The translations under genes and the position numbers were made by a program. A stretch of DNA of 64,000 nucleotides from Amoebophrya sp. A120 (Eukaryota > Protista > Dinoflagellata). Positions 12,731-60,300 of this stretch are shown here, piece by piece (the first letter of the stretch is position 1; each line of letters begins with the position of its first letter). The stretch is taken from NCBI GenBank assembly GCA_905178155.1, contig CAJINV010000015.1, positions 1,666,538 to 1,730,537 on the forward strand, given 5' to 3'. The notes below the pieces were generated by a model that was not told where the DNA came from, ran no database searches, and saw only the letters and a list, made by a program, of their open reading frames with translations.

Positions 12731-12766
12731 TTTTTTACCGCCACGGCAGTGCCAAGCCGGTAAAAA

Positions 12767-15121
12767 ACGCCACGGTAGGTGTTAAAAATACGAGGAGGTC
12801 GTGAGAAACTGTCATGTGTATGAACCAAAAGAACCAATACCAATACCAATCTCTGAGTCTTCTATTTTGTGTTTCGAGTATGTGTTTAACTTTAACGTTT
12901 AAATTGTTTCTCGCCAGTGCCAGACCTATGAATCAAGTACACTCCTTTTAATTTTTCCCCATCCCAAAGAGACAAAGACATTTCCAAAAAATAGCGAGGC
13001 GAAACGATGCTCATACTGTAAAGAAATTTTATAGGGCTAATATGCTTTGCCTTTGGCTCTAGCTTTGATTGACAACTCCCGCAGGGTTGAAGCGCGGAAT
13101 GCCGATGGATGTTGTTGATGTTCATTCTTCTACTGCGGGGGGCGGGTTGTATCATCTTCTGCGTAGTGTGGCACAGTCGCAAATAACGAGAGTAGAGTGT
13201 GGCACCTGTTTGGATGCGCCAGAGAGTTGAACTAGTGATGTGAGGAAACACGTCGACGAGGACGAGAAAACCACAATGGAGGAGCGTGAGTACTAGTTCA
13301 TTGCGTCACCTTCAGCTTCTCAGGGTCTTCTAGGGCGGTTCTGGTGGAGAGAACAAACTTTCGTGGTGACAGTTTTTTTAGTGTTTTTCGCAACCAAGGA
13401 AGCTTCCTTTTGACAATGTGTTGCTTCATCGCAGTGAAGAGATAAGTTCGGTGTTCAATTTCAAATCATGTGAAAAATGGCCTCGTCGCGAAATCAAGCC
13501 TACAGTTCTCGGACGGCAGTAAGTGGCACGTTGGAGCGGTTGTAAGTAGCTTCCTTCGAGCGAAGTCATGGAGAAAGGAAGAGAACGAGACCCGCGGAGA
13601 ATGTTGCTTCGCCGAGCACCGCCCTCGCAGGGTCAGATTGATAAGGACGCGCGGGTAGGTGGTCGTGCCTCCAGTTCGAACTCCGATAGATATCCGGGCT
13701 CATCTTCATCGTCTCAGCGTGGTGTCGTACGTCCGCAGGTTTTTCCACAACCATCGGTGCAGCCACTTTTTTCCTCGGCAGCTGCGACTCAACACTGCGA
13801 GAAAAGCTGCAGTACTAGTAGAAGCAGCAAGTCTACTGGCAGGATAAATGTAAATGAAACAAGTGGCACGGTGGAGGAAGTTGTAGACCACTTGTCATCG
13901 ACCGGTAGTAGCAGCAGGGAGAGTGGTTAAAAATACGCCACGGTAGGTGGTTAAAAATACGAGGAGGTTGTGAGAAATTATCATGTGTATGAACCAAAAC
14001 CAATCGAATGTCTGTTGAGTCTTCTATTTTGTGTTTCGAGCAATATGTTTAAATTGTTTATCGGTCTGGCTCTGGCGATAATTGCCAGAGTCAGACCTAC
14101 GAATTAAGTACACTCCTTTTGATTTTTCCCCATCCCAGAAAGACAAAGAGAAAGAGATTTCCAAAAAATAGAGAGGCGAAACGGTGCTCATACTGTAAAG
14201 AAATTTTATACGGTTAATATCCTTTGGCTTTGGGTGTGACAACTCCCGCAGGGTTGACGCGCGGATTCATGCAGACGGATGTTCGTTTTTCTACTGCAGG
14301 GGGCGGGTTGTACTTATTATCTTCTGCGTCGTGGGACGCAATCGCAGATAAAAAACGAGAGCAGGAGAGTGTGACACCCGTTTGGATGCGCCAGAAGGGT
14401 GAGTTTAGTGATGTGGGGAAACACGTCGACAACGAGAAGAACGCAATGGAGGAACGTGAGTACTAGTTGTGCTTGTGTCAGCTTCTCAGGGTCTTGTAGA
14501 GCGGTTCTTCTGGAAAGAACAAATTTTCGTGGTGGCAGGAGTTGTTTTGGTGTTTTTAGTCGCTAAACAACTTTGTGACATTGTGTTTTTGCATATCAGT
14601 GTGATATTAGTTTCGGTGGTCAACATCAAATCATGTGAAAAATGGCGTCGGGTGGAAACAAACCCTGTAGTTCTACTTCGACGGCAATAACCGGCACATC
14701 ATTGGGGCGCTACTAGCCGCTTTGTTCCGTCAAAGGCATGGAGAAAGGAAGAGAGGAACGAGACCCACGGAGGATGATGTTCCAGTTCCTCCGCCACGCA
14801 CCGCCCTCGCAGGGCCAGGTTGACAAGGATGGGTGGGTAGGTGGTCGTGCCCCCAGCTCGAACTCTGCTAGATGTCCGGGCTCATCTTCATCGTCCCAGG
14901 ACGTCGTCGTACGTTGTCCGCGTTGGGAAATTTTTACACAACACACTCCTCCATCAGTGCTATCTTCAGCTAGAGCTACACACGGCGACGAGAACAGAAG
15001 CGGCAGTACCAGTAGAAGCAGCAGGTCAAATTCTACTGGCAGGATAAATGAAAATGGCACGACGGTGGAGCAGGAGGTAGCCCACTTGTCATTGACCGCT
15101 AGTACAAGCAGCGGGAGTGGT
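12767..15121 (+). repeat. Diverged tandem duplication of about 1.17 kb (copy 1 12767-13927, copy 2 13935-15121)
   Basis: Collinear similarity throughout, covering upstream DNA and the first part of the gene at 14738. Confidence 0.9.
13568..13930 (+). pseudogene. Truncated duplicate of the 5' end of the gene at 14738
   Basis: MEKGRERDPRRMLLRRAPPSQGQIDKD vs MEKGREERDPRRMMFQFLRHAPPSQGQVDKD; stops at the duplication junction. Confidence 0.75.
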
Positions 15122-22431: not shown

Positions 22432-25400
22432 ATGGACGCTGCGCGCCAGCTAATCGCCCGCGAGCTGCAACAGCTCTTGCAGCAAACCGCAGCCTCTTCC
22501 AGCAGCTTTATCAACTGTAAAAATGTCTGGGTCTGGAAGAGTGCCAGACTTGTCATGCAGGTTTTCCATGCCCCATGAGGTCTGGCATGTAGGACATAGC
22601 ATGACAGATTCTGTGCGAGTTCCATCATGCCTATCCTGCATGAGAAATTGCCTCTTGAGTAGGTCAAAAGTGGACAGCTTTTGGTAAGCATGCAACACAG
22701 ATTTTTGCATGCTTCAGATTTAGCATGACAAATTGCATTCTTCCAGACCCAGACATTTTTACATTTCATAAGCTTACAAAACCAACAAAACTACCTACTC
22801 CCAAATTACGAGCAGCAAAACACTCTCCCCGCTTTAGCCGAACTCTCTAGTGACCCGGAGTTTCAGCTGAAGCTGCAAAAATGCTTGCAGATCACAACCA
22901 ACACGGTGGATGAGCTCGTGGACAACCACGGGTTCTTGTCCGATCTGTTGCTGTTAGTGATCAAAAGTTTGAAGACGCTCCACGACGCGGCCGCTGGGAC
23001 GAACTACAGTACTATGCCGTCAACAATGTTGTCGCCGGGTTCCAAAACGACCGCGAAAATGCTGTACCTGTCCCTGTTCAACATCCTCGCAACCACTTTC
23101 CAGTCGTTCATTGGCCCCGCGTTTTCCACGCACGCCACCATTGTGAATCTGCTGTCCGCTGCCGGGGAGAAGTTGAACCATCGCACGGTGGAAATCATGG
23201 CGTTCGACGCGAAATCGGGGCGGTTTTGCGTCAAGGTTGAGAAGGGGGATGTGGATAAAAAACAGTGGAAGCGGATAAAACCGGAGAATTTGGTGATGCT
23301 GAAGTCGGACTCGAAAGATACAGTTACCCGACAGCTTGAAGGTGGCGCAGCAGGAGACCATCTTCAAGACGGCTTTGCAAGTACTTCAAAAAACAGTAGG
23401 TAATGTTTTTCGACGAACGTTTGACTTTGCGTTTTTCATGTACTGTTTTTCTACTTTCTTCTTCAGTTGATAGTGATAGTCGCGGCGTCTGATGACACGG
23501 TGGTCATGGACCTCCATGTTTTTTAGCTGCCCACACGTCGCTTCTGCCACCCAGTACTATGTAGAGCACAATCAAAACTTCACAGGTACTACTTCCCCTC
23601 CCCCGACCCAAGTGCACATGCGCAATCTGATGGCCGTAAATTGTCTGGAGTCCGTGTCTATCCTGTGCAAAAGTATCGTACTCGTACTAGTTGCAGGCAT
23701 GCATTACAAATTTCCAACCCAAGGCAAAACAGCATGACAAATTCCATTTCTCATGCTGGGCTAATTTGTATTGCAATTACTACTAGTACGAATACTTATG
23801 CAATTCATAGTGTCCGAAATTTTCGACTACCTGGTTACCGATTTCCTGTTAGGCCAAGAAGACGGGCTTAGCCAGCAGGTTTGCTTCGCGATGTACCGGG
23901 CAGTTCTGTTCACAACCGCATCCGCGACGGCCGGAGCTGCTGGTGGGTTATGGATTGCAAAAGCATCGTACTCGCATAAATGCATTACAAATTTTCTCAG
24001 CGTGAGAAATAAAATTTGTAATGCGGATTGGACTTAACAAAAAGATTAAGATTTGTGATGCATGATTGCAATACGAATGCGATGCTTTTGCACAGGATAT
24101 AGGTCGACGACCTCCACCGCAGCGAACAAAATGTCATCCACTGACTTATTCGAACTGTGCAACAACAGCGTCCCGGTCTTGATTTCCTTCGCCAGGAACG
24201 TTTTGTCCGCTGGAAACGAATTTGCGCAGAAACAAAGCACCAGTGCAATAAATCACCACTACCATCCCCAACAGATGCTCCACCTCTCCATTCTGCACCC
24301 CATCGCGCACTGCCTCTGGACGGACAACTACGTTCTACTAGCGGCTGCGGGGGTTGCCGGCGGGATAGATTCCGACTACGAGAATGACGCGATTTCGAAT
24401 GCGGCGCAACAGCATCAGTTGAAAAAACTCGACGATCTCCCGATCGACCACGTGGAAAGGTTTCATGCCGAGCTCGCCATGGCCTTCGTCGACGCGGATT
24501 TTTTGCCGTTAGTGATCCAGATCGTCAATTTATGACAGGGCACAACTCCTACTTCTCCTCCTCATTTGCATGGCATAAACAGCAATACAAGCATCGGGAA
24601 GAACGCAGGTTTTGCATGACAGATTTATCCAGGGGTTTTTTCGTAGTTGGGACTGTGTCATAGTAGGATGATTTACCGCTTTTTTACTTTTCTTTTCTCC
24701 CTTGACGCTAGTGTTTAGGTTTGCACACAACGTTATCCCTACCCAGATAGCAACAAATGCTCACGCCGCAGCCGTCCCAGGAGCTTTTATTTTGTTGTTG
24801 TCTCTCGGTAGTGATCACTTTGTCCAAACTTATTCTACCTAGAGTTTGTCGAGTAAGTGGCTACCGTTTTAAGGTTTAGAGAACGACAGGGACGCCCAGC
24901 CCTTTTTAGCTTCCCAACATGACAGATTTACCCAGGACTGTATTGGTGTTTGAGCTGTCAGAATCTGTCATGCAAAAAGTGCCAACAAGAGGCAAAGGGT
25001 GGACTTGGTATTTTGCATGACAAACGAGGAGGAGGTGGAGTTGTGCACTGTCATAAAATTCTACCGCCCAAACCGTGAATTCCACCTTCGGCGGGAAAGG
25101 CGGCGCTTACGAGAGCAGTCAAAAGTCCAAAATCACTGTGCAGGTCTTAATATCCTGTGCAAAAGTATCGCACTCGTAGTAATTGCAGTTATGCAATACA
25201 AATCTTTTTCCTAAGGCTAATCCGCATTACAAATTCCATTCCTAATGCTGCGGAAATTTGTATATGCAATTTATACTAGAACTAGTACGATACTTTTGCA
25301 ATGCATACTTAACCGCAGGCGGATCCATTCTCGGCTTTTTGGCCCGGAGATCCGTCCACGATCTGACGATTCGGCGGCATCTACAGCTCCACGGTAGGCA

Positions 25401-30903: not shown

Positions 30904-33900
30904 ATGGGTGGGAAAAACAAGAACGAGCGGCGCAACGCCAATAAAAAGCAGACGGAGAAGAAAGACGACAAGAAGAAAAAGGATGAAAGCAGCAAGCCAA
31001 ACGACGAGAGGCTCACATCCGAAGAGCTTGGATTTGTCATCCGCACAGGGCCTGATGCGACGCATCGGAACGTGCATACGCTCGAGGTGGACGCTCGGAA
31101 CATTGTGATTCACGCCGGAAAACAGGAACTGCTGTATGACGCGATACTACGATGTAACTACGGCGTCAAGTACGGCCTCGTCGGGAGGAACGGGGTCGGA
31201 AAATCGACCTTACTGAGAGCGATCAGCGATCGAGATGGTATAGAAGTTCATGTTCATCTATCATCTTGAGCTGCAGGGAGCCGACTACAGGACAATTTGG
31301 TCCTGCTGTCACAAGTTTTACTTGGCGCATTTTCTTTTTCACAAAGAAGAAGAACGAGAACTCAACAGCATGATCGTTGGACCAGCAAGAAGAATTTTTT
31401 ATAAACTAAAAATTGCAGGTCGTGTTGCTATCCCCCCGCACATGTCTTTGATGCACGTGGAGCAGGAGATTGTCGGCTCTGAGGAAATATCAAATGCAAA
31501 AATGTCTGGGTCTGGAAGATTGCCAAGTTTGTCATGCATATTTTGAATAAACCCATGATGTCTGTGATGCACCATGCCCTAGCGTCACAGATTTTTAGAG
31601 GACTTTGCGATGGTTCTACCGCATGAGAAATGCCCTCTCCGCGTAAAAAGCACAAACTGGAGTCCTCTACTTGCTGGTCATGCAATACAAATTTTTTGGC
31701 TCAAGACTTCTTGTCTTGTGGCCCTTTTCCCACTTTAGAGACGGGGCCGCACCCCCGTGAGATCAATTCGTCCGGACTCATCGTGGAGATCAACCCCCGT
31801 GAGATCCAAGATCCGTAGAGGCACTCTGTAACAGGCATCAGGTGCGGCTGGTGAACCTTTTGACTCACACGTAGATTGTAGATTGTTTCTCTAAAAGAAA
31901 AATCAAAGCAAAAAAAATGAGTACACACTTGCCCTCCATCCGAAGCGCGCACGTGCGCAATGAAGCTTCGATGGTCCCAGCGGGCATAACGCCCGGTCTT
32001 ACTCGTTACTCCCTTCATCTGCCCTCGCCAGCCGTCCCCAATGGCGTTCGATTGTGGGGCCCTTGATCCCCACGTAGAAGCTCTTCGCGGGTTTCTTCTT
32101 GCCGGGTGGAAGACGGTGTGCGTCGGTTTTTTTTTGGCGGTCTGGGAGTTCCGTGTAGGTCTTTGTTCCTAGGGGCGCTTGTCGACGCCCTGCGGCGGAG
32201 CGGGCGATCGGGAGGACTCGACGCTACTTGTGGACGCCATCTCCGAGCTGTCGATAGTAGAGGAGTTCTGCCGCACATCTCCGCGTCACGAGGATGCCGC
32301 GCCCACTAGCGGATCGCCCTGCTGCGCTGGAGATCAGGGACTTTTTATTTATTGTTTTTCGTTTGTCTCACACTCTCACACACTCGAATACTTATGAAAA
32401 GATCATAGTACCAGACCCATATTTCCTTTTTTTCTTCGTTTGAGTTTGTCGCCCCTCCTAATCCTTTGGTCTGTGTTGTGGCAGCGGATTGTCCTCTGAC
32501 CCTTACGTAGCCTTATGGCAACCCCTTTCCATATGATTGATCTCAGGTTTTGTGTGGTAGCTGCGCTGGCAGCGCGTTTGTGCGGCTCTCTACTCCTGCG
32601 AGGTGCGACGTTTTCGATGCGGCTGGGCTTTGCGGATCCAAACTGCGCGGAGGTGGTGGTGGCGATGGCGGGTTGATTACGGTGCGGGAATTCGGGTCGC
32701 CAGCCCCGGGTCTCACAGAGTACTGAACGGTGCTTACCAGCTGGATAGACGAGTGAGGGGTGATTACTCGTAGGGGAGTTGTTTATGGCTCGCGGTCGTC
32801 TTTCTGTCGTCCTGGCGTCGTTCGTGGGGGTGTGGCGCGGGGGTGGAGCGATCCTCGACGAGCGGTGCGGTTGCGGCTTTGTCGCGTCGAGCGGAGCGGA
32901 GCGTCGCTGTGTCTCCTCGGCATCGTCTCTTCGTGGCCTGTCGTGCGTAGTCCTAGGTGGGGTCCCTATCCCGGCCATTGCAATAGGGCTTTTTGGTGGA
33001 CTGCTGGAGACCCCAGTCCAGTCGCATCGCGACGTTATTTTTCAGCTGCAGGAGACCCCAGCTATCCCTTTGCTCTGCCCAAGTCCCTCGTCTTTGTCTG
33101 TTCGTCGTGTTTTGCCTGGTTTACCGCTGGAAACGATGCCGTGCTTTTGGAATTCCGGTTTCGACCAGGACATGCAGCCACTCTAACGGTTTCACTCGGG
33201 TCCGACCCCCGTTAGAGCTTGACCCCATCCCCCCGAGGTCCTACCTGAGGTAGTGGTCGTAAAGGGGGTATAGTGGTTGAGGGGTAAATAAGGTCATGCA
33301 ATACAAATTTTTTTAGAATCACAGACCCAGACATATTTGCAATCCATAGAAAACCGTGCTCCAACACGTGCTAAAATCCTATTTAGAACGCGAGTATGCA
33401 TTGCAAAAGTATCGTACTACGTATAAATTGCATTACAAAATAAAATTTAGGCAAGAAGAAGAAGAAAAGCGGAACTTGTAATGCTGTTTTACCTTAGGAA
33501 GAAGATTTGTCATGCATATTCGCAATTAGTACCAGTACGAGTGTCGATGCTTTTGCAGTTCATAGCGGGTACCTTCTCGACTTGGAAAAGCAGTTCATCG
33601 AAGATAATGAGAAAGATATGGTTATGCTTTGCAAAAGTATCGTACTAGTATAAATCGCAATACAAATTTATTTCCTCAGCATGAGAAATGACATTTGTAA
33701 TGCGGTTTTAACTTGAGCTTGACACAAAAACTTGTAATGCCTAAATGCGATTAGTAGTACCAGCACGATTCTTTTGCAATGCATAATGGTCCACGGTGTC
33801 ACTATGATGGAGGTCTACGAGCGACTAGACGAGCTCCACTCCGAGGAAGCTGAGGTAAACGCTGCAAGAATTCTCGCCGGCTTGGGTTTCACCCACAAAA

Positions 33901-45390: not shown

Positions 45391-48300
45391 ATGCCGCACG
45401 CCGTTTCCTGGTATTTGTTTGGCGAGCGCGCCCTGGATTTTATCCAGCCGCGTCATATTATGACCGTGCACAACTCCCCTCACTCTCATTTCTCATGCAA
45501 AATACCCAATCCACCTTTTGCCTCTTAGCGCTGTTTGCATGACAAGTGCTGGTAGCTGCCCAAATAAGTAGCGCTACACCCCAGCGCAAAATTGTCATAC
45601 AAAGCCGGCATTCTTGCCGATGCGTGTATTGCCGTTCATGCAATACAAATGAGGGGGGAGGGGAGTTGTAGTGCATTGTCATACACAAATCCCTCGACGA
45701 CCGCATCGCGGATGAGCTAGCCTCTAACCGAACCTGCACCCCCTCCTGCAAGCAGATCACGCGTTTAACCTTGAAAGCGATCTTCGCGGGTCTCACCGTT
45801 TCGCTCGCACTTATCCCGGAATGCCTCGCGTTATGGGAGTGCACAAGAACTCGCCCCCCTTCCCCCCATTTGTCATGCAAAACCGCAAGTCCATTTGTTC
45901 CTCTGTGGCACTGTTTGCATGACAAATTTCGGAAGGCCAAACAAACAGTACTACCTTTGGCCGGTGATCTGGGCATGCACAGGCCTCAGGAGTGCTGGTG
46001 TTTGTATTGCGGGTCATGCCATACAAATGAGGGGGAGGGGGACGAGTTGTGCACTCGCATACGCGTTCTCCTTTGTGGCGAATGTTCCGCCACTGGTTTC
46101 CCTCCAAGCCGTATGCTGTGGAAAAGTATCGTACTCGTATTGCAATCATGCATCACAAATCTTTTTCTTAAGTTGCATCAGCATTACAAATTTCTTTCCT
46201 CATGCTGAGGAAATTTGTAATGCATTTATACGAGTACGATACTTTTGCAGTTCATAAGCCGCCTGGATTATGTGCTTCGTCACCGCGCTCTTCAACGGCT
46301 ATCCAATGCAAATATGTCTGGGTCTGGAAGAGGACAAGCTCCTCATGCACATTTTCCATGATTCGTGATGTCGGCGATGTATGACTTAGCATGACAGATT
46401 TTTTGAGCGCTTTTCGATACGCATCTCGCATGACAAATGCCCTCTCCGCATAGCCAAATTTGACTCCCCTTGCTGCTCATGCTATACAGATTTTTTCAGC
46501 ATCCACATGTAGCATCACAAGTTCCACTTTTCCAGACCCAGACATTTTTGCAATGCATAACGGCTGTCCCGGGGTCATTTCCGGCGCAGCGGGGTCCATC
46601 GCGGTGTTATTGCCAACTTTCATGTCCGTACAAGAAGAGCAGAAATACCAGCCTTTTCTCGAGTTTGTCCCGGAAACCAGGCTGGGCCCGCACGGCACGG
46701 TCGGTGCGCCCTACTCGGACACGGAAAAAATTCTCCAGGCTAGGCAACTGGCTATGAATTGCAAAAGTACCGTACACCTAGTAGTGCAAATCGCATCACA
46801 AATTTGGTCAGCAGGACAAGTAGAACTTGTAATGCGGATTTGCCTTGAGAGAGAAATTTGTAATGCATGGCTGCAATCACTACGGTACGAGCGCGACACT
46901 TTTGCAGTTGATACTGGCGAAGCAGGCGCAATTGATCAAACTTTTCATCGCGGTCATGTGCAGCGGTGTGATGACCATGATCTACTCCCTCTGTCAAGCG
47001 CACTTTATCATTTGTAAAAACGTCTTCACCCCAGAGTTGTAATGCAAATCTGCATGCTGGGGGAAATGTTTTTGATGCGGAGACCCATTAGAAGCAGTTT
47101 CTTCCTGTGTTTTGCGATTTGTGATGCTCACATCCGCATGGTATGCTAGAGCAGTGATGCTGCTTCACTAGCTAAACCCGGCGACATTGCGAGCCCGAAT
47201 TTGTCATGCGCAACAGCCAAAGCTGGTTGATTTGTGTAGCAGATTCGCCATCTTGACTCTGGGGCGGGGACGTTTTTGCTTTCCATACACTTGCTGCTGA
47301 AATTAGTAACCGTTCCGGTCCGGCTCGGCTTCTTGATCGGCCTGGGGTTTTTGATGGGCTACACCCAACTCGAGTCCTTTGAAACCCCGGAATATGAATT
47401 GCAAAAGCATTGTACTCATATAAATGCATTACAAATTTCCTCAGGATTACAAATTGAATTTGTAATGCTGATTTACCTTCAGAAAAAGATTCGTAATGCA
47501 TGACTGCAATTGCTACGAGTGCGCTACTTTTGCAATGCATACGGAATTCCGCAACGGGATTCCGGACACGGACCAGTACGTTTCTGGGGGCAGATTGTAC
47601 GGGATGATAGTGTATCAATTCAAATATTCCTGGATGTCTGGAAGAGTACAAACTTGCCATGCAGAATTTCCATGCCCCCTAAGGTCTGGAATGCAGGACC
47701 TAGCATGGCAGATTCTAGTGCGATAGGTCTCTATGATCATGCCTTTCCTGCATGAGAAACTAACCCCCTCTCATGGTGTTCAGATGAAAAGGGCAACTTT
47801 TGATCCTGATCGCGAAAGACAGATTTTTGTGTGAAGATCCACAGGATGCATCACAAGTTCCATACTTCCAGACATCCAGGGATATTTGCAATCCATATAG
47901 TGCTGACCTGCATTTCCGTTTTGATCCAGACAATCCCGTGCAAATCGTGGCAGAAACTCCCTTATGAAATGGTGCAAAAGTGTCGTACTAGTAGTAACTG
48001 CATTACAAATTCGCTTGGCATCACAAATGAAATTTGTAATGCTTACAAGCGCTTAAGTAGCAAAGCTAAGTTGTAAGTTTTTAGCCTTTCAATACTTTAT
48101 GTTGCGTAGTAGCTTAGTGATTTAGTGGCTTTAGTAGGCCTAGAAAAGGCAAAGGGACGGACTGCCCTTAGATCTCCGATGTAATGCTGTTTCACCTTAC
48201 GAAGGACATTTGTCATGCATAAATGCGATTAGTACGACGAGTACGATGCTTTTGCACAGGATATCCCTTTGGCGATCATCTCCATTTTCGTCTGCACCGT

Positions 48301-51300
48301 CCTCGTATCAAATGCAAAAATGTCTGGGTCTGGAAGAATTCATGTTTGTCATGCTTGTCTGGCATGACTCTTAAATCTGTCATGCACGTTACCCAAGAGC
48401 TCCGTTTTTCTGTGATGCAGAGAGAAGCGCAGTTTGTCTTTGTCATGCAGACTAGGCTGCAACACCTAGGAGCTCAGAAACTTGTCATGCTGAGCCAGCA
48501 TGTGTAGCCTCATCATGAGACGCCACCCAGCATCACAAGTTTCCAGACCCAGACACTTTTATTTTTGATACCTCGAGTGGGGCGTGTTCCGGCCGCTGTC
48601 CCAGCGCTACCTGGCCGAGGATTACCAGTACGATGTTCTCAACCCAGTAACCAACGAGTCCAAGCAGATTTTCAATCGCAGCGCCTGGGCCACGACCCTG
48701 ATCGGCGATTTGGGGGACCTACCGATAGGGCATTTCTATCCTGAGTAAAAACGTCCCCACACGACCAGATTCAATATGGGAAATCTGCTAGACAAATTAG
48801 CCAGCTTTGGTGGTTTCGCATGACAAGTTTATTTTCCTCGTAGTGTACACCTATGCAGAAGTGCTACAGTGTGTGCGTGTTTGGTCCCCCCTGAGCGACG
48901 TGTGTGTGTGTGTTGGTCCACACCCAAGTCCGAAAAAACCTAGCCTCATAACAGCCGCGCCCTTATGGTATAGATCAACTGTTCGTCATAGAAGATCGGC
49001 GCTCAGATTGCTCTCGGGCTGGAGGAGGGAGTAGCGCGCAGCAGTCCGCTAAAGGGCACACTGCCAACATCATCATCATAAATCCTTTCCAACTACTTCA
49101 GAAGCATCACAGATCTAGCATATCATGCCGATTATAGCGCCACAAATTCCAAATTGAAATTACGACTAGAGAATGCTTCTCATGGGGCTCCGCATGAGAA
49201 ATGTTTTTCGCATGGAGATTTGCACGACAAATCTGGGGTGGGGACGTTTTTACACAGGATGACTTCCCCCAGTTCTTCTTTCTGGATTGGTTTGACGAGA
49301 AACTCACGTACGGAATTATGCACGAAAAAAACTGTGTAAGTGTAAATCTGTGATGCAGAAAATGCAAAACAGTTATACTTGTCATGCTCGACATGCGTGA
49401 TCGGCTCGCTTCCTATGTGTTTTCCCTTCCTATGTGCGCATCACAAGTTTTTCCTGTCATGGCAGAAAAACTTGTGATGCTGTTTTCCCAAAAGACTTAC
49501 ACTAACACAGTTTTTTTCGTGCATAGGAGTCCCGATTTTGAACGAGGACGGAAACACAGGAGCAGCTCATGGGCAGAGCGATACTAACGGGAACTCCAAT
49601 TCCTACGAGATCTTGTGGCCGTCCGTAGCGGATATCGGGCCGATCCTGTATTGTGTGCAAAAACGCTCCCACCCCATAGTCAAGTTGGTAAATCTGCAAC
49701 ACAAAGCTCCAAGTTTTGGGAGTTTTGCATGACAAGTTTCCATCTGTAGCGTAGTGCTGTTTAGCGCGAGAGCAGCCGGATGAGAAAGCGAGCTTCTCAT
49801 CCTGTTTACAACATTACAAAGTCCAAAACACGATGGGAAATCATGCCTCTCATGGAGATGCGCATTACAAATCTTCCTGTCATTGCACATTTGCATGACA
49901 ACTATGGGGTGGGGACGTTTTTACATAGGATATCCTGTTTCTCGCATTCATGGCCTCGATCGTCGGGTTAACTGAGACGCTGTTGACGTTTCAGAAAATT
50001 GCGTCCGAACTGAAGCTGATCGATAAAACAAGCTTGGTGCGTATGAGAGTGTCAGGATCGAGATCGTCAGAGTTGAAATAATTTGCGATGCTTAAAACCG
50101 ATACCAGTCCGAAGCCCACTTATCAAGCGGCGCATGATAAATTTTCCGAGCACCGGAATCCAATTTGTCATGCTGTTTGGGCACAGAAGACTGCTTTTGT
50201 CGTGCTAGTTTAGTAGCTCTATTTCAAACCCTAAACAGGCGCACAATCGGCGTCACTTGCCATCCCGGCAAGGCAGGCACTTCATGCCTTGCATTTTATG
50301 CATGACAAATCGTTTCATATACCAACCCCTGCCGTAGCCATTTTGGCTCAAGATCCTTAATATACCAACCCCTGCCGCATTGGCGGGGGGGATCCGCTGG
50401 GCCCAGTCACAATCTTCAACAGCGACCTAAATGTGAAAACATAAGAGGGGGAGCAATGCCGTAGATAGATTAGATCCTTCGTGATTCCTTTTATTTTGTC
50501 CTCAGATGCCACGCCGGCACCTCCCCCGAGTCTCTGCGTCTAAGAAGTAACTCCCGATCGTGGCGGGTCAGAGTCATTTTCTTCTCTTATTGTAGTCTCT
50601 AGCTCAAGCCTCGGCACCCCGTGTGCCTGGAGGCACGTGTACAAAAATGAATCAAAATGACCTGGCGGCGGCGCCTCGGGAAGAGCCCGACTTATCGCCT
50701 CGCACCCTCTCCAGAAGGCGGTAAGTATGTAAGTGGCTCGCGGGCTGCTCGCGACAGAGGAGAACTCGAGCCCCCGCGTTTTGAGAAGTCGCGACCCGAC
50801 CTACAGTGGCGCTTTCGCTGTTTTGCCCCTGCGTTGGTTGCTCCAGACAGGCCAGACGACGGAACCATATCGGGTCTGGAGTTCTGGAAAGGGTTACGGC
50901 CACCATGCTGCCGGTGGTTTAAGCAGCACGGGCCGGCAAAGACGAACGGGCGCCAGGTTTCGCGCGGATGCCCCCCAGCTCGCCCAAGCCAGTAGCAACA
51001 AGCTCAGTCGAGTCTTGTTCCCCAAGCACAATAGATGCGAGAAAGGGGCGCACAATAGATGCGAGCTCAGGGCTTGGCAGCGCTGGGGGAGATGGTCTTG
51101 GCCACGACGCGGGAGCCTTCCCTCCGTGGAATCGACAATGGGCCTGGCGTTGACGTTTTGCGCGTCTATCTTAGCTGCGCAGCGGCTCCATCGTCCGTCA
51201 CGTCCGCGCCTCGTTTGGGTCATGAGGTCATGATGTGCAGCTCCGTCGATTCATTCTCAGCTGCAACCTTTGCACTAGCCTCTGCCTGGCTCTCAGGTGC

Positions 51301-54300
51301 TTGGCTGTCAAAAGACAAAGGCGCTTTCATATTCTTACCGGAATTTCCTAAACCGCATCGCAGGCTGGTTTCGTGCCTGCGGTGTCCGTAAGATTCCGAA
51401 TAATATCTACTTTGTACGCATGGGACCAGCTGCAGGCTGCTGCTTCCTCATAGCAGTTAGCCTGGTCGGTCCCTGCACAGTTTGTGAGCACTATAAGTTG
51501 GATCGTTGGCGAACGTTAAACGTGCTCTGGTGGCGACAAGTGTGGACCGTTGGCGAACGTTAAACGGCCCAGCCGCATACTGCCGTGTGCGTAATTACAC
51601 TGGGGGGATTCAGGGTAGTACGGAGACGATGTTTTGCGGCATCACCCTGCAGCAAAAGGTGAATGAGCTGACCAGGAGTTTCCTGCTGGCGTGCTATTGC
51701 CCGCGCTCCCGTCGCCTTGAAACGCACCGCATCGCCCGCGCGGCGGATGCTCTTCTTCTCGATCTGCAAGACATGCATTACTCTGCCCGCACCTGGACGC
51801 CGTACTCCTGTGCGGACGTGGATTCCCATTTCCATGACCCCGATGACCCGGCGCGTTGCAATCTGGGGCACTTTGACACTCTGCAGGCTACTCGGGCTAG
51901 GTCGTTTCTGCAGGGCATTGTGGTACAGGAAGGCCTCAGCGAAGAGGCTGCTGCGGATCTACTTGCGGTGGTGGACGATAAAGCGTTGTGCATCCTGGCG
52001 CACAAAGACGATCTGGACAGCGGAAATCTGGCACGAATTTTCGCCACGCTCAAGCAGGTCACCGAGATAAACTCCAGGCATTGCCTGCAGTTCTTCTCAA
52101 AGTCCAAATTTGAAGTAATTGCGGGCTCACCCTACTGGGGCCCGGACGTGAGTTCCAGCAATCTGGCCAAAGTGTGGGAGCTGGCCGCCAAGCACTTGAA
52201 CCCGTTCTGTGTCACGCCGGTAGTCAGCCTGAAATGTAAGCTGGTCGGGTTTTTGTTCAACACGCACAGCTCCCAGGCCGACGTTCTCTACGGACAAATT
52301 TTGGCTAGGCTGAAGTGGAGCCGCATTGCTGCGGAACTTGTCTGCAAGTACTTGCGGTATGTGAATGGGGTGCAGCTGCGTACCATCCTGGTCTGGGCCT
52401 ACATCAGTTCCATTCTGCACTTACTCGTGGTCGGCGTGCGCATCTTCCCTGAATCGTACTGGCAGGAACTGCTGTTCCAGATGTCGTGGAGCATTGCGGA
52501 CATGGTTGGGCTTTCGGTGGAAACGACGAAGCACTACCTGGAGGCAAACTGCATCCCGCGGCACGACATACACAAGTTAATTTTTTCGAAGCAAATGCTG
52601 AACCTTACCGACCCCCGCTTGTTGGCCACGAAAATTTTGCGATGCGGCGCAGCAAAGTGGACGGCTATCAGTGGCACTGCCTCCGTCGCGGCCTACGCCA
52701 CTGCCCCCGTGCTGATGGGCGCGGACGACAAGGAGAAAGCACTGGGATTCAGTGCCGAGGGTCTAGTGACATTGCGGGAGATCCAAAAAGCAGACTTGTA
52801 CACACAGGATGTGTTGCGCGACGTTGTCGGGGATTCCGCGTTGTGCAAAAGCCTGGCGACTACTACCACCGATTCGGTGGACGCCGCAGGCAGCAATGCG
52901 TCTGCCCTGCCCAGCCTTTTCGTCAACAAGAGCTCCTCTCCTTCCGCAGCTGTCAGAGCCACTGTGCTGGTGCCCCTGCCCTCGGCGTCGGGCCGTCTCT
53001 CGTCCGCACTCAATCGCAACTACGACGCTCCTGTTACCCACGCTGCCCCGCCTGCGATTTGTAATGCCTCCGGCTGCTGCTTCTTTTTCCGCGAGAACGA
53101 CTGCGACCTCGCTGTTCTGTATAGAGGCAAGGCGGCCAAGACATACCACACTTCTGACCATGGCGAGTTCTCCTGCCCCAGCCTCCGCTCGGACGTGCGG
53201 TTTTTGTCTTGTGTGGTGCGTGCAATGGAGGATTGGCTGGGGGATTGTGCTGCCGGGCTATTGTCGACGCATCTGATTGTGGCCGGTGTATCGCTGTCGC
53301 CATCTCTGCGTAGCACTGCGATCCATCGTCTTTTCCGGAGCATGATTTGGCGATGGGCTCCGGGTCGGGTCAGCATTATTTATCATAAACGCGGCGGCGC
53401 ACTGTCTCCCATGATGTACTCGGAGGCCCAAGCTGTTTCTCATCGTTCCGACATTTTGGATCTACCAAACCGCGGTGCTGGTGTCGTCTGGCCGATCCGG
53501 ACACTCAGTCTGCCGTTTGACTTCAAGACCAACGATGAAAAACTCTCCTTGCAGCATTTCCGAAATCGGGTGAACGCGAGGTGCAAACCGAAAACCACGG
53601 CGGCAACCACGGGCGGTGGCACGCTGGGGGCTTCTAGCACCAATACTACGACGGGCGGCGAGACATTGGTGTCGGGGGCTGATCCCTCTACGGGGACGCA
53701 AAATACCGCGTGCGGTTTACCTATCCCGACGGTGGCGGACCCTATGCCGGTGGAAAACGTTACCTGCACCCAGCAGGCGCCTACTGGATCGGCTATGACT
53801 TTCCCGACCGCGCCACGGCCTGCCATGCCAGCTATTGCTGCGCCGCCGACCATGGACTCCCAACTTTCGAACACTGGTGAGCAGGTGCCACTTGTGACGT
53901 GCAAGCCCGCCACATCACTCCCTACCCAGTCCAGCCGCCGTGGTAAACAGGACACCGCCGCCGCCAATTCTACCAAGCGCGCGGTGACTACCAACGTTAC
54001 AGTCAGCCCGGAGGCCAAGTCGAGGAGAAAAGGCAAAAAAAATACCACAGGAACCGGCCGCAGCACTGTGGTGCCCCACGTCACTGCTACCCAGTGACTT
54101 TTCTCGGTATCGCCGTCTGCTTCCTCGGACCAGCGGATTTATCTGTTAGCTTCAGTGTGAAAACCAGAACAGAAAATTAATGCAACTCATGTCTGTGTAG
54201 CGATATAATGACTGCGTTTTGGTGTAATAGTTTCGCAGGTGCGCTTGTGTCTATTCCTGACTATGCATCGCGTAGTCTGTGCCTGTGGTTGGCGGGCCTA

Positions 54301-57300
54301 TATATTTACGCACCACGCGCTGACCTTGGCTGTGTAGTGACTGCGCCGCCACTCCGTTACAGCGCAAGGTTGTGGCTTCAGGAAAAGATCTGTTTTTTTG
54401 TCTATGACTGAGTCGCGCTCTGAGTAATCCTGGAGTGTGGACTGCCCTGATGTGTGAAGGCCTGCCTACGAAGACAGCTGAGATACAGAGGACATGACTC
54501 CTGCTTTCGTTGTTTGTCGTTTGTGTAGTTTCGTCAATTGCAGCACTTTCATCCGCAGACCTGCCCGCGAGCCTGCCTCTGGCGCTGTCTGCCTGCGCGC
54601 TACCATCGACCCGGTGTGGGCGTCTAGTTCTGCCTGCCCCCATCGACGGCGTCGGGTTTTGCTTACATCGCGCGATGCTATGCTGGTCGGAGCCGGTTCA
54701 TCCTGCCTCCCGCCGTTTATCACCGGAGCATCCTGGGTCGAGCGGAACTCGGCGACCATCTGGATGGGCAATTTATCCTCCCCGTGCATGCTTGTCGACC
54801 TGCTGCTGGTGTGGACCCCGGTATCATATTTGTGCTGCGCAAACAATGGGTGCCGCATGCGCCTTTCCGAGCGAAGCACGGCGTTCCCCCGGGTGCGTAT
54901 CACCAACTACTCGCGCACGCCATTCGACTTGCTGTTAGTCGCGATCCCTGTATCTAGATCTTGCTGCACAGTTAAGAGCGGACACTACTGCCTATTCGTA
55001 GTCTGTCATGCGCGGAGCACTTGCTGGACCTGACTTTTTACTTGGCCTGTTTTGCCGTTCCTGGTACTACACTGACACTTCGCGCTCGACATTTACTTCT
55101 ATTTATTTCTATAGGCCTTGGTCTTCTGTATTCCATTTGTGGCCGGGATCTCCGGAGCTTTGCATGCGCGCGCTCTTTGTATATTCTCGGACTGTTTGCA
55201 TTGGACCTGGTTCCTGTTTCGGGATTTGTATTTGTCGCCCTCTGTGGCCCCCCGATGTGCACTTACTACGCTGGTGGTTGCTGTTGCTTAGTGTCTTAGT
55301 CTGTTGTCTTGTCCTCCTTATCATTTTATTTTCGCTCCGACAAGCATGGCAATCTACTCCGCTTTGCATGTGTCCGCTCAATTTTTTAGTTTCCATACAG
55401 ACCCCGGGTAGTGCCGTCATTGCGACCTTCCCCCTACTGGACTCCACCTGTGGCTGCTGAACAAATCTTCTCCGCGTGGTGCCGCTGTTTAGTGATGGAT
55501 ACGCTATCGATGACGTCATGTTGGGCCCGAACATTGATTCCCGAGCACCCGACCGCCGATCTCCAGTACCCCGCCGGCGGCGAACAGATTCCCAGGCAGT
55601 GGGTCTCCGCCGTCTCGTCCGAGCCTGGGGCTCAACTCCCTCGCCATGTAGCCGGTTTGGGGCATTTCATGGCGTGTGCGACCGTTTTCCGGCGCAACAG
55701 CCTGTTTCGGATCCATGTTGTACATCACGCACGGGTAGATCGTTCCAACAGCGCACGATGACGACAAGGAAGACGACGAGCCGCATCAGCGAGCCACCGG
55801 CTTGATGAGGGTTCCTGCAGGCCCTACCAGCTGTCGCGTCCTTGGTTCGGTACCTCCTCCCCGCCGGTCCAAATTAAACCTGCTGGCACCGACTTCCGTG
55901 ATTAAGATCCTCCACGACCTACATCTTCCTGCTGCTACATACGCTGGCCGTGTCTCTAGATGGTTTTGCTCGTCCTCTTCGACTAGTAGCCAGGTTGGAG
56001 CTTTTCGTGGGGTGTGCGACCTTATTCCGGCGCAGTAGCCCGTTTGCGGATCCATGTTTTACATCATGAACGGGAGGTCGTTGCAGCAGTGCATGGAGAT
56101 GACGGGCAGCAACAGTCGTGAGCCACCGGCTTGTGGATTACTGCCGCCTACGGATCTCTCCTACTTGGCAAAAGTAAGGAGTGAAAGTTTAAAAGTTAAG
56201 AAGGTTCATTTTATTAATAAAGAATGTCAGTAAAGCGCTCTTGGTCTCTTGTGAAGTCCTCTGCGTTATCCTTTTATCTATATCGCGGCTTTATGGTGCT
56301 TAGCACCTGGGTCCTTGGCCGACCCGCTCGATGACTATCTACCCGCGCTGCAGGCTCGCTCCCCTGCATGCGTCCTTTGTGTGGACTACCTTGCTATTTG
56401 TGTATCGTAGCTCAAGCGTTCACTGTCTCGCAAAAATTACTCACAGCTTATCACTTACATGATAAAAGACGCTGCTTAATTCTAACTGCGTGTGTGCTCT
56501 TGCTTGTTTATTTTTTTTTTAGTTCTCTATGTCGGCTCGCGCCCCGGCTCCGATTCTGTCTTGATCTGTTTATTCCCGGCCCGCCTCCCGGATATAGTTT
56601 TTGTGCTTTGTCTCCTCGTGGCTCCACACCCACTGCATTTATGGCCCCTGCGACTGCCGACTTATTATTATTTTGGGTTCGCGTCCCCACTTTTGTCCTC
56701 CCCTCAGCCGTATCCATGCGTTTGGCGCGTGGTTACACAGGCCGGGATTGAGGCCTACTCTTATTGTATTGCTTGTATGTGGCGACTTGCATGACTCGGC
56801 GTCGCTTAGTCTTTTCTATCTGTCCGCCGCGTGTTACCTACTTCATGATGAGCTTATGTGGTGACTTTTCTTGCTGCTAGTGCATGACTCGCTGGTGATT
56901 CGTTGCCATGTGGATCTTGGCGTGCGCATTAATTCTAATTTTACTTCCTCACCGTCGCCTGAAAAAATGCAACTACGTATTTATTTGTTTCGGAGGCCCG
57001 CTTCCCTCCTATCTCTAGTTTCTTCAGCCGATCCGAAGGTAGTTTGTATGTGTGCCCTGGCTTTCCGATATGGAGCTCTGATTTGCATGCTAAGTCGGAA
57101 AGTCGCCTCATGCGCGGAGTTGCTTGAGGACACGTTGTATGATTTTGGGACCACGTACCTACTAGCCCGAGGGGGTGCGGGAGCCTGAAAAAACGAACGT
57201 TAAACGTATGTTGGCGATAAGTTGGACTGGTGGCGAAAGTAAGGTAAAGGCAGCGTAAGTAGTTGGATGTGCCCGGGGATGATGGTGATGGCTTCGGTCC

Positions 57301-60300
57301 GCCTGACTCCGCGACCTGGTGGCCGAACCACGTGCGGTTCGGTGCCCTTACAGGTTGTGTAGTGGTTTCGGTCGGTTTAGCATGACAAATCGTTTCAACT
57401 TTGGCGATTTCAAACCTGACGCTTCCATAGTGCAACCAGGAGCGGCGGGGCAGCACCCGCACCAGAACGGCGGCGGGGCCTCTTATGACACCCTCAGAAT
57501 GGAAATCCTCAAAGTGGAAATAATTTGTGATGCATGAAATGCGACACCAAAAAGACTGCATTGCAGATTGCAGAGAACGCAATGGAAGCCGACTATTGTG
57601 CATCTACGGGCTCAGACTTGGGCTCCTGATTAGCATGAGAGGAGGGCACCCCTTTGCCTAACTAGCATGACAGACACGTTTTGAGTGCCCGGGAAATTTG
57701 TCATGCGCCGACTACAAATGGTGCTCCAACTGGAGTCGTTTTTTTGCATTACAAATTATTTCCACTTTGAGGATTTCCAACCTGAGGCTTTCATACCTCT
57801 TTGGCTTCTAACGCAGGGCGAAGCGGAAAACATGGTGCTGGAACTACAGACTCTAACAGCAACGCATCTTCGCCAAGAGATCGCAAAATAACGACAGAGA
57901 AAGTTTTTCACTCGGAGGAGGCGGATCCGTTGCTGCGAGACGACCGGCTTTCGAGTTCAATAGGTACAAGCGGAGATTTTAATATCAACTACGATCATCA
58001 TTCTAACAACTACCAGGATATTGACATCAACGTGTCGAAAAGGAAAAGCGGCCAAGAAAATAAACAAGATTTGCCCGCCTCTCCCCCCTCCACCGAAGGA
58101 GATGTAGGTATCCGAACCCCGAAACTGCGCCTGAAATTTTCCTCCAAAATCCGGGTTGTATCCAGCTACCAGGAGCTCTTTGTGCAGGGCGTCGCGAACT
58201 TGGTTTGTGGGCTGTTTGGCAGCATGGGTGGGTGTGCGATGATTGGCCAATCACTGATTTGCGTCCGAAACGCAAGTGATGTGGAGATCCGGGAGTCTGT
58301 GATCGGGGCCGGGAACATTGGCAGACTGGCCCCGATCTTGGCGGCTTTGTTCACGTTTACCTTAACAATGTACCCGGTGGTGCTGTCTATCATCCCGGTT
58401 TCCGCTTTAGTCGGCGTCATGCTGGTATCCTCTGCAAAAGTATAGTACTCGTATATTAAATGCATTACAAATTTCCTGAGCATGAGAGATAAAATTTGTA
58501 ATGCTGATTTTTTAGCTTTGGAACAAGATTTGTAATGCTTGTTTGCAATCGAATCACTACGAGTACGATTCTTTTGCAGTGGATAGCTGGTCGTTTCCTA
58601 CCACACCATCGACTTTCGGTTTCTCCTATCAAATGCAAAAGTGTCTGGGTCTGGGAGATTGCGAGATTTGTCATGTTTGTCTGGTATGACCAAAGAGGTT
58701 GTGATGCGTGTCCAAGAAGAGACCCTTTTGCCTGTCATGCAAAAACGCAGTTTGTCATGCGAAAAACGCAACACAAAGAAGCGCACACATTTCTCATGCT
58801 TGGCTGCGCATTACAGAGCATTCACTATTCCCAACGCAGCATTACAAGTTTCCAGCCCCAGACATTTTTGCACTTGATATCTCCCCGCGGCTTGGAAAGC
58901 GGTTTTTTGGTCGGAGGAACAGAAGAAGAAACGGTTCGCTTTGGTGTATAACAAGGGAGGCCTTTTGGTGGAGGTAGAGGAAGCGGAGATGGAGCTCGCT
59001 CTGGCCGCGAGATCCTTCGTGACCGAGCGGATCCACGGGAAGGGAATCAACGAGGAAGAGCTTTTATTCGGAGAAGAGAAAGAAGACGAAGAGGCTCTTC
59101 ACAACTATATCGCAGCACAAGCGAAGAACAGTTCTTCTAAAAGCGCGAAGAAGAAAAAAAGAGGCAAAAAAGATTCCAAGTTCATCACGGTGCCCCGGGA
59201 AACCAACATGAAAAAAGACGACCCGGTTTTCTTTCCCAATTTTGACCCGGAGAACCCGAAGCTGCTCATCGATCCGGAGCATTTGACCGAAGAAGAGGAG
59301 TCACAGTTGCGAGAGGAGGACGCGATGCTTCACGCCAGCCTCCAACAGATGAAAAAAAAATCAGGCAGTTTCTTTCATCATGCCGACTTCGACCATGCTG
59401 GTGATGGGCATAAAACCCCCGGGATAAATAAAAGCCGAACGCCCTCGAAGATGTTGATAATGACCCCAATTAAGAAATCAGGCAGCAAGGAGCAGTATCC
59501 TGTGCAAAAGTATCGTACCTACGTAGAAATTGCCTTTATGCATTACATACAAATCTCTACTACTTTGTCATATGTAAAGCAGCATTACAAATTATGCTGG
59601 GCTAATTTCTTGTAATGCAACTTATTATACTAGTACGATGCTTTTGCATTGCATAAGCAGATGCAGAGCCCCTTTGCAGGTCATATTCATACACCAGCTT
59701 CCGTCGATCCCTTATCAATTGCAAAAGTGTCTGGGTCTGGAAATTTGTGATGCTAATTCATGAATTGTGGGGACACTGCTATAGGCAGCCACGCATGGCA
59801 AGTTTCTGGGCTCCTTTGTGTTTCGCTTTCCGCATGATAAACTACATTTTTGCATGACAGGCAGGAGGCTCTTTTCCTGCTCACGCATTACAGGTTTAAG
59901 AGTCATGCGAGACACGCATGACAAACTTGCGCCCTTCCAGACCCAGACATTTTTGCAGTTGATATCCCTTAATGGGGAGCAAAATCAGTTCTATATCGGG
60001 GAACCACACCGGCAGCAGCAAAGGCATATCCTGTGTAAAAACGTACCCACACCATAGTTGTAATGCAGATTTGCAAAGACAGGAAGACTTGTAATGCGCA
60101 TCCGCATGAGAGCCATTTCCAATCGTGTTTTGGAATTTGTGATGCTGTGAACAGGATGAGCAGATGCATCTGTGATGCGGCTGCACTTGCTAACCTGAAC
60201 TACGCTGCGGAGTGCAACTTGTCATGCGTGACTCACAAAACTCCTCGACTTGTGTTGCAAAATCCCCATCCTGACTCTGGTGTGGGTAGGTTTTTACTCA

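Follow-up and report, generated by a model that had tools for sequence, protein, structure and literature searches.

A probable LINE-made retrocopy of a spliced-leader-tagged RNA inside an introner of Amoebophrya sp. A120

Introduction

How does an RNA with a trans-spliced leader come to lie, as DNA, inside a mobile intron? The question is raised by a 1.6-kb non-coding insert in a 64-kb window (the whole stretch of 64,000 nt that was analysed, from contig CAJINV010000015.1 of the dinoflagellate Amoebophrya sp. A120). The insert interrupts an introner of family B in a gene for an ATP-binding cassette (ABC) ATPase, and its 5' end reads as the 3' end of DinoSL, the dinoflagellate spliced leader. 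The answer proposed here, with a probability of about 0.6, is that the insert is a retrocopy of a trans-spliced non-coding RNA, written into the introner in trans by the ORF2 protein (from open reading frame 2) of a host long interspersed nuclear element (LINE). This origin is favoured because the insert has an exact duplication, a restored empty site and a leader end placed exactly at its 5' junction. As part of the same reading, the leader would mark complete reverse transcription and not a separate mobile system.

For comparison, DNA of a close relative was used, namely the best 178 of an estimated ~720 stretches matching the family-B end, stored as 163 loci (prefix JACKZZ01); 156 of these, about 533 kb, were left after removal of redundancy. 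A library of introners was also built; it covered about 25% of the window, which is rich in short repeats bearing inverted arms at their termini.

Structure of the insert and of its host introner

An exact 22-bp direct repeat (31676-31697 and 33292-33313) brackets the insert of 1594 bp, whose presence inside the introner is a real feature. The locus comprises the following parts:

31420-31487, plus strand: host-gene exon (ABC ATPase) that lies upstream of the introner; its start is approximate
31488-33348, no strand assigned: host introner, of family B and about 245 bp long once the insert is left out, with terminal inverted arms at 31488-31514 and 33322-33348
31676-31697, plus strand: left-hand copy of the 18-22-bp target-site duplication, its terminal T's common to the leader; introner-internal motif at 31682-31692
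31694-31705, plus strand: 3' end of the spliced leader; 31698-31705 unambiguous, 31694-31697 common to the T-run of the target
31706-33291, plus strand: insert body, non-coding, GC content 0.56, T-rich
31742-31762, plus strand: 21-nt imperfect repeat with its second copy at 33197-33216 (score reached by 1 of 500 shuffles, post hoc)
33271-33278, plus strand: 8-mer common to the 3' end of a 7-kb element, a weak candidate signal
33292-33313, plus strand: right copy of the target-site duplication, with the motif at 33298-33308
33320-33321, no strand assigned: private deletion of ~28 nt in the host introner, which takes out its last internal motif (from alignment to family members)
33354-33394, plus strand: following host-gene exon; with the whole introner removed, the frame in which it should be read is open

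When the insert and one copy of the repeat were taken out, a 245-bp element was restored, collinear with all seven family-B copies picked from the window and also with the six best library members. The exception is the ~28-nt deletion, which is private to the host introner and lies 7 nt beyond the right copy of the duplication; the distance from motif to introner end is 40 nt here vs 67-74 nt in 29 of 34 family members. An equal spacing of both leader-tagged inserts from the introner end, about 35 nt, is a product of this deletion and was rejected as a signal. The terminal inverted arms of the host introner are 27 nt long and match at 85%. We infer that it is bordered by a 5-bp repeat with one mismatch (31483-31487 and 33349-33353), because of the exon frame and of the relative's empty sites for other introners. 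Matches to ABC_tran (Pfam) were found in the host gene on either side of the insert region.

The spliced-leader junction

The sequence TTTTGGCTCAAG at 31694-31705 equals the final 12 nt of the published 22-nt DinoSL (leader as given in the available text of PMC5585692). The right copy of the duplication runs on with a seventh T, and sister introners have a T-run at the same place. As the T-run is common to target and leader, the duplication measures 18-22 bp and only 8 nt are certainly leader-derived. The chance of finding the leader 8-mer at a junction was about 5e-4 (15 inserts with two ends each). The 11-nt leader end was matched twice in the window, at this junction and in the full leader (50331-50352) of a 7-kb insert that is likewise nested in an introner. 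When leaders within 30 nt past the introner motif were searched, the two window matches were again these two junctions, with none in 100 shuffles and no such stretch in a whole metagenome contig collection.

An earlier note on this DNA had described a 1594-bp insert with a 22-bp duplication inside family-B introner 31488-33348, a 5' junction formed by the leader 3' end with its T-run merged into that of the target, and two leader-bearing inserts in 64 kb, both nested in introners. All of this was borne out, by the exact repeat and the collinear restored site, by a 12-nt match with 8 unambiguous nucleotides, and by the finding of only two leader-end matches in the window. The note does not mention the ~28-nt deletion.

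Content of the insert

The longest frames of the insert, 152 aa on the plus strand (p = 0.32) and 212 aa on the minus strand (p = 0.08), fell within the range of block-wise shuffles, as did the frame with fewest stops (p = 0.26). A codon model with 48 long ORFs from the relative as its training set gave no frame-specific signal in five insert frames; the same model picked the true frame of the ABC exon and of the ORF in the 7-kb element. No insert frame had a Pfam match at the cut-off, and a 140-aa frame had no homologue at E <= 0.1 in a search restricted to near lengths. With shuffles, codon model, Pfam and homologue search all null, the insert was left without a credible ORF, as the earlier note had stated. 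A minus-strand gene was considered and rejected, its frames not exceeding shuffles and having no codon signal, and hammerhead cores were rejected with none in the insert.

The insert gave no Rfam match at E <= 1, no tRNA gene with ARAGORN and no credible match to Amoebophrya ORF2 proteins (best E 0.3), and no long terminal repeats (LTRs) were found around it. Apart from the leader, no part of it was similar to the 7-kb element, either as DNA or in translation. The AT skew of its plus strand was -0.25 vs +0.04 +/- 0.08 in 254 windows of the same size, and resembles that of the 3' half of the 7-kb element. Trans-splicing implies an RNA made by RNA polymerase II (Pol II); with this, and with neither a tRNA nor any other Rfam head, the earlier description as 'SINE-like' (resembling short interspersed nuclear elements) was not supported in its strict sense.

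The 7-kb element and a candidate enzyme family

The second leader-tagged insert is nested in an introner of family C, which is missing from the relative. Its main features are:

50300-57397, plus strand: 7-kb leader-tagged insert with an 18-bp duplication and a full 22-nt leader at 50331-50352
51563-54097, plus strand: 3' half of a non-LTR ORF2 of the apurinic/apyrimidinic endonuclease (APE) type, from the 'QG' motif of the reverse transcriptase (RT) onward; endonuclease and N-terminal half of the RT missing

The leader is preceded by a 13-nt copy of the element's own downstream sequence. The ORF aligns only from residue 892 of the protein P0001, and the 1.2 kb upstream of it had no match. Therefore, the 7-kb element lacks an endonuclease and half of an RT and is itself a passenger; it cannot be the driver. 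Though defective, it points to a candidate enzyme family. A full HMMER scan with its ORF returned 12 homologues, and eight of the nine looked up were named Amoebophrya (A120, A25, AT5.2). The long homologues (1430-1740 aa) have an endonuclease-like N-terminal region (PF03372, E 4e-4; PF14529, E 0.017; both below cut-off) and conserved motifs that we take to be those of APE and RT. When the RT region of P0002 was modelled (pLDDT, a model confidence score, 68), all 13 fold matches at E <= 0.001 were R2 or LINE-1 proteins. These alignments and the predicted fold show that a non-LTR ORF2 family is present in the lineage. For the window ORF itself, an Atlas search gave a weak RT lead only (0.76-0.77), no Pfam or word-index match was obtained, and there were no confirmed loci in a viral contig collection; PDB sequence searches returned no match. 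A Penelope-like assignment with an HKDD catalytic motif, made by eye, was rejected after the alignment put the conserved VDD elsewhere.

Some minor features of this family were also recorded. Short duplications occur in the 7-kb element at its 5' end and directly ahead of the ORF2 fragment; it also has a 51-nt repeat at 80% (51510-51560 vs 57194-57240) and, within the ORF2 fragment, a long insertion ahead of the catalytic motif. An AT5.2 gene model, P0003, has a v-SNARE domain fused to a LINE ORF2, which is probably a gene-prediction join.

Other nested inserts and the introner motif

Interrupted introners numbered 15 in total (5 in the window and 10 in the relative), and eight introner-nested inserts had exact duplications of 11-22 bp (3 and 5, respectively). 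No LTRs or terminal inverted repeats were seen in these eight. Their 5' ends are variable, and short 5' tandem duplications were found in the 7-kb element and in the insert of locus L009; both traits are expected of non-LTR copying. The leader was present on two of the eight, that is, on 2/3 in the window vs 0/5 in the relative (Fisher p = 0.11). Neither leader-tagged insert had a copy in the relative's loci, and the 11- or 12-nt leader end occurred 0 times in their 533 kb vs twice in the 64-kb window, a difference of p ~0.012 under equal rates for a window chosen for this feature and a relative whose contigs are short. The earlier note had argued for a dedicated system defined by the leader. 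This was not supported by these counts, nor by the metagenome contig collection, which contained no leader-after-motif junction; for the relative at least, the results speak against a common system of this kind. Outside introners, 18 repeats of 15-30 nt were found, without an empty-site control and several of them within longer duplications; none had a leader in the first 25 nt.

Three of the leaderless inserts form a family, here called X, with duplications of 13-21 bp:

24615-24930 of the window, plus strand: 290-bp leaderless insert with a 13-bp duplication, internally deleted relative to the L009 member
L009, 13596-14613: second member
L065, 3953-4317: third member

They are T-rich and have a core of ~240 bp and a 3' end of ~30 nt in common, with 5' ends that differ and likewise without poly(A) or a simple-repeat tail; for leaderless inserts the T-rich strand was taken as sense, which is an assumption. 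In all three, the duplication begins after the G and before the C of the introner motif GCAHDACARAT (GCG in L009). The two leader-tagged inserts had served first to define this motif; it matches at 109 places in the window, 104 of them in merged repeat blocks, and at 601 in the relative. Exact starts at the motif position were seen in 3 of the 6 other inserts, vs 0.006 sites per strand-base of introner DNA (binomial 3e-5); since all three belong to family X, they show the specificity of one family only, the inserts of L002, L097 and L125 lying outside the strict register. Family X is probably a sequence-specific non-LTR family, and its motif-targeting is the better-supported surprise of this neighbourhood, suggesting that at least one retro-family targets introners by sequence. 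The duplication of the 7-kb element starts one base before the family-X position, which a one-base chance match would account for. That of the 1.6-kb insert holds the motif in the same orientation (null expectation 3% for a 22-nt window, 6% on either strand).

As to the motif itself, 11 nt long, it recurs in both orientations in several otherwise unrelated introner families and may be where a transposase or splicing factor common to them binds. Near-matches to the leader 3' end directly after the motif were noted in family-A introners at 36930 and 40662 of the window and in L018 (2776-2925).

Proposed origin of the 1.6-kb insert

In the reading preferred here, a Pol II RNA would first have acquired the 22-nt leader. 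An APE-type LINE ORF2 would then have nicked introner DNA beside the internal motif and primed at an RNA 3' end without poly(A). Copying would have reached the leader, and, to judge by the junction, the cDNA end may have paired with the T-run of the target, sparing the last 8-12 leader bases. The outcome, seen directly, is a duplication of 18-22 bp around 1594 bp. The insert would have been tolerated, with the enlarged introner presumably still spliced from the host mRNA; the flanking exons are open. A LINE rather than Copia is pointed to as the putative maker, because the duplication is long, LTRs are missing and the join is by microhomology. The earlier proposal of a retro-insertion of a leader-capped RNA into an introner, non-autonomous and 5'-joined via the T-run, is supported, and a non-LTR pathway is present in the lineage.

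Several points weigh against this origin. Of the leader, only GGCTCAAG (8 nt) lies outside the duplication, and these are its sole unambiguous bases. In 3 of 308 library elements, of family A, this motif is natively followed by a near-match to the leader end. The insert has no poly(A) or simple-repeat tail, its 3' end having an A-rich stretch of 6 nt only (a lack that the earlier note had reported correctly). Neither a parent RNA nor a second copy of the insert was found in the 64-kb window and the 533 kb of the relative, and the DNA examined contains no intact LINE. The host gene is absent among the 163 loci of the relative, where an empty allele of the site was not seen. Finally, the duplication starts 7 nt upstream of the family-X motif position; therefore, a nuclease common to family X and the 1.6-kb insert is not demonstrated.

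A wider extension of this origin is conceivable, though we hold it to be less likely than not. Amoebophrya LINEs may have evolved to home to a candidate protein-binding motif common to many introner families, hiding with their passengers in spliced introns; full-length copies of trans-spliced RNAs would then yield the orphan leaders of Amoebophrya and provide a present-day model for leader-tagged retrogenes.

Alternative explanations

The rival that survives best, which we nevertheless regard as unlikely, is that the insert belongs to a dedicated family of non-autonomous elements, for instance LINE derivatives with internal deletions, whose 3' recognition signal is also that of the LINE in the 7-kb element; this comes close to the view of the earlier note. 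The 8-mer TAGTGGTT is present at 33271-33278 and 57360-57367, 12-13 nt from the 3' ends of both inserts, and nowhere else in the window. For a common 8-mer within the final 25-30 nt, p was ~0.005 (0.0045-0.006); widening the ends to 40 nt gave 0.02 and to 60 nt 0.047, all uncorrected and post hoc. The composition of the insert is also like that of the T-rich 3' half of the 7-kb element, and internally deleted derivatives do occur here (the 290-bp insert vs that of L009; the 7-kb element vs full-length ORF2). However, the two leader-tagged inserts are not similar in DNA or translation beyond the leader, and no second copy exists in the window or the relative's loci. Alignment of their 70-nt 3' ends reached only p = 0.047, among 28 pairs tested, and the p of the 8-mer itself rises to 0.05 at 60 nt. 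The 3'-end folds are unexceptional (z -0.6 to -1.5), whereas a true shared 3' end, that of family X, spans ~30 nt and was reached by none of 300 shuffles. The 8-mer that the earlier note reported near both 3' ends is present there; no significant fold was obtained, and the 3' ends shown for the other six nested inserts lack the 8-mer, which is weak evidence for a candidate shared signal.

It is less probable still that a leader-capped RNA or cDNA was captured at an existing staggered break, made for example by the introner's putative transposase at the motif, without a cut by a LINE endonuclease. The near-confinement of the motif to repeats (104/109) is what a transposase-binding site would show, and the lack of poly(A), the off-register start and the 28-nt deletion 7 nt past the duplication would fit such an event. 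Against this, the deletion is separated from the junction, and the duplication is a clean one of 18-22 bp, like those of seven other inserts (11-21 bp); a clean long duplication fits endonuclease-primed insertion better than break repair.

A reversed element, with an incidental leader match and the T-run as a short remnant of poly(A) at a T-rich cut site of the L1 type, is very improbable. On the minus strand, the duplication does begin with six A's, that strand is A-rich like coding DNA, and an intron-like donor/acceptor pair was seen by eye; the near-match to the leader end in family-A introners would also be in line with coincidence. But an exact 8-mer at the junction is expected by chance at only ~5e-4, the minus-strand frames do not exceed shuffles, and the 7-kb element shows retroposition of a leader-capped RNA whose sense strand is the T-rich one and which is oriented to the motif as here. 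An artefact of assembly, for instance cDNA joined chimerically to genomic DNA, could be suspected from the lack of such leader-tagged inserts in the relative's loci, but is scarcely credible given a perfect duplication within a multi-copy element, the same anatomy in five inserts of an independent assembly and a window free of N.

Comparison with known systems

Dinoflagellate retrocopies with a relict DinoSL were reportedly described by Slamovits and Keeling in 2008. The established comparison class for the present insert is that of LINE-1-type processed pseudogenes and trans-mobilised passengers. Like these, the insert has a duplication of the variable-length type, 5' microhomology and no enzyme of its own, with an APE-plus-RT family available; unlike them, it has no poly(A), carries a leader in place of a plain cap and is targeted to a mobile intron. 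CRE/SLACS/CZAR and NeSL elements insert into the leader gene, so that leader sequence stands in the duplication and leader-gene sequence in the flanks, whereas here both flanks and the duplication are introner sequence. Retrocopies mediated by LTR elements such as Copia feature LTRs and a 4-6-bp duplication, unlike the 18-22 bp without LTRs found here.

Target-specific non-LTR elements include the Tx1 and R1 clades with APE, and R2, CRE, NeSL and Utopia with a restriction-like endonuclease (RLE), according to the available text of PMC4640811. As described there, their multicopy targets, transposons among them, are a low-harm niche, and the fixed 3' junction of family X (3/3) recalls them; unlike these elements, the 1.6-kb insert is 7 nt off register, and its leader is a trans-spliced 5' end, not a target.

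In the text available for PMC5585692 and PMC12014239, DinoSL retrocopies are old coding retrogenes with leader relicts upstream of ORFs. They share with the insert a truncated genomic leader at the 5' end of an RNA-derived copy, and differ in that the insert is young and non-coding, with no intact or recognisable ORF, has both junctions intact and a pre-insertion site that can be read from sister introners. The term 'target site' is absent from the main texts of both papers. In the portion available of Song et al. 2017 (PMC5585692), the machinery behind leader-tagged retrocopies is called unknown and Copia is cited as a candidate. If the present RNA was indeed pasted by a LINE, as seems likely, it would point to that machinery, and a young copy with a readable pre-insertion site gives the junction anatomy directly.

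For Amoebophrya ceratii AT5.2, the accessible text of John et al. 2019 (PMC6482013) lists 53 full-length and 713 truncated genomic leaders that lie away from gene models, and gives them without flanks or mechanism, with reintegration judged rare. Leader motifs away from gene models are also what is seen here, and the present inserts offer a candidate explanation; the 1.6-kb insert thus bears on the puzzle of retroposition being judged rare despite hundreds of unexplained orphan leaders.

Non-LTR elements are known from Amoebophrya genomes, and some A120 introners have been attributed to them (Farhat et al. 2021, PMC7789003; PMC12130899, as far as their available text goes); the introners described there end in inverted repeats and are flanked by a short direct repeat, like the host element here. 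Introner-nested retro-insertions are not mentioned in the available text of either paper; the word 'nested' is absent from both main texts, and 'spliced leader' from that of PMC12130899. Leader-tagged retrocopies, Amoebophrya orphan leaders, introners and transposon-targeting non-LTR elements are thus each already in print, and a literature search outside subscription papers found none joining the four themes. What is new here is a leader-tagged retrocopy with fresh non-LTR junctions within a mobile intron; it suggests that introners tolerate kilobase cargo.

Age of the introners and further nested inserts

One locus of the relative, L023, is orthologous to 42.8-62.8 kb of the window (42799-62839) at 86-98% identity, and many of the window's introners are missing from it. 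Therefore, the introners are young and polymorphic, so that inserts nested in them are recent, as seen at the site of the 7-kb insert, which is younger still; the comparison suggests that introners moved after the two strains split. Clean empty sites in L023 suggest introner duplications of 5 bp, sometimes with one mismatch. The introner end had no match in the viral contig collection.

Among the remaining nested inserts, that of L002 (5870-7503) is 1612 bp long with an 11-bp duplication, and, in the other strain, interrupts a family-B introner within the ~25-bp segment that the 1.6-kb insert also hits; it is leaderless and of unrelated sequence. Its tblastx matches to L055 contain stops and were rejected. 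Inserts at 48847-49081 of the window and in L032 (707-1293), L034 (10367-10548) and L064 (683-900) lie at CATG sites in introners and terminate in short repeats of the CAT or CATT type; with duplications that are short or unclear, they are possibly a second retro-family primed by microhomology. Further nested inserts were recorded at 48035-48188 of the window and in L018 (1604-2142), L097 (340-586) and L125 (332-440), comprising a piece of 136 bp whose duplication measures 9 bp, an element with inverted repeats and a duplication of 8 bp, and two short pieces with duplications of 16 and 18 bp. The window also contains a 1.2-kb tandem duplication at 12762-15121, with 75% identity.

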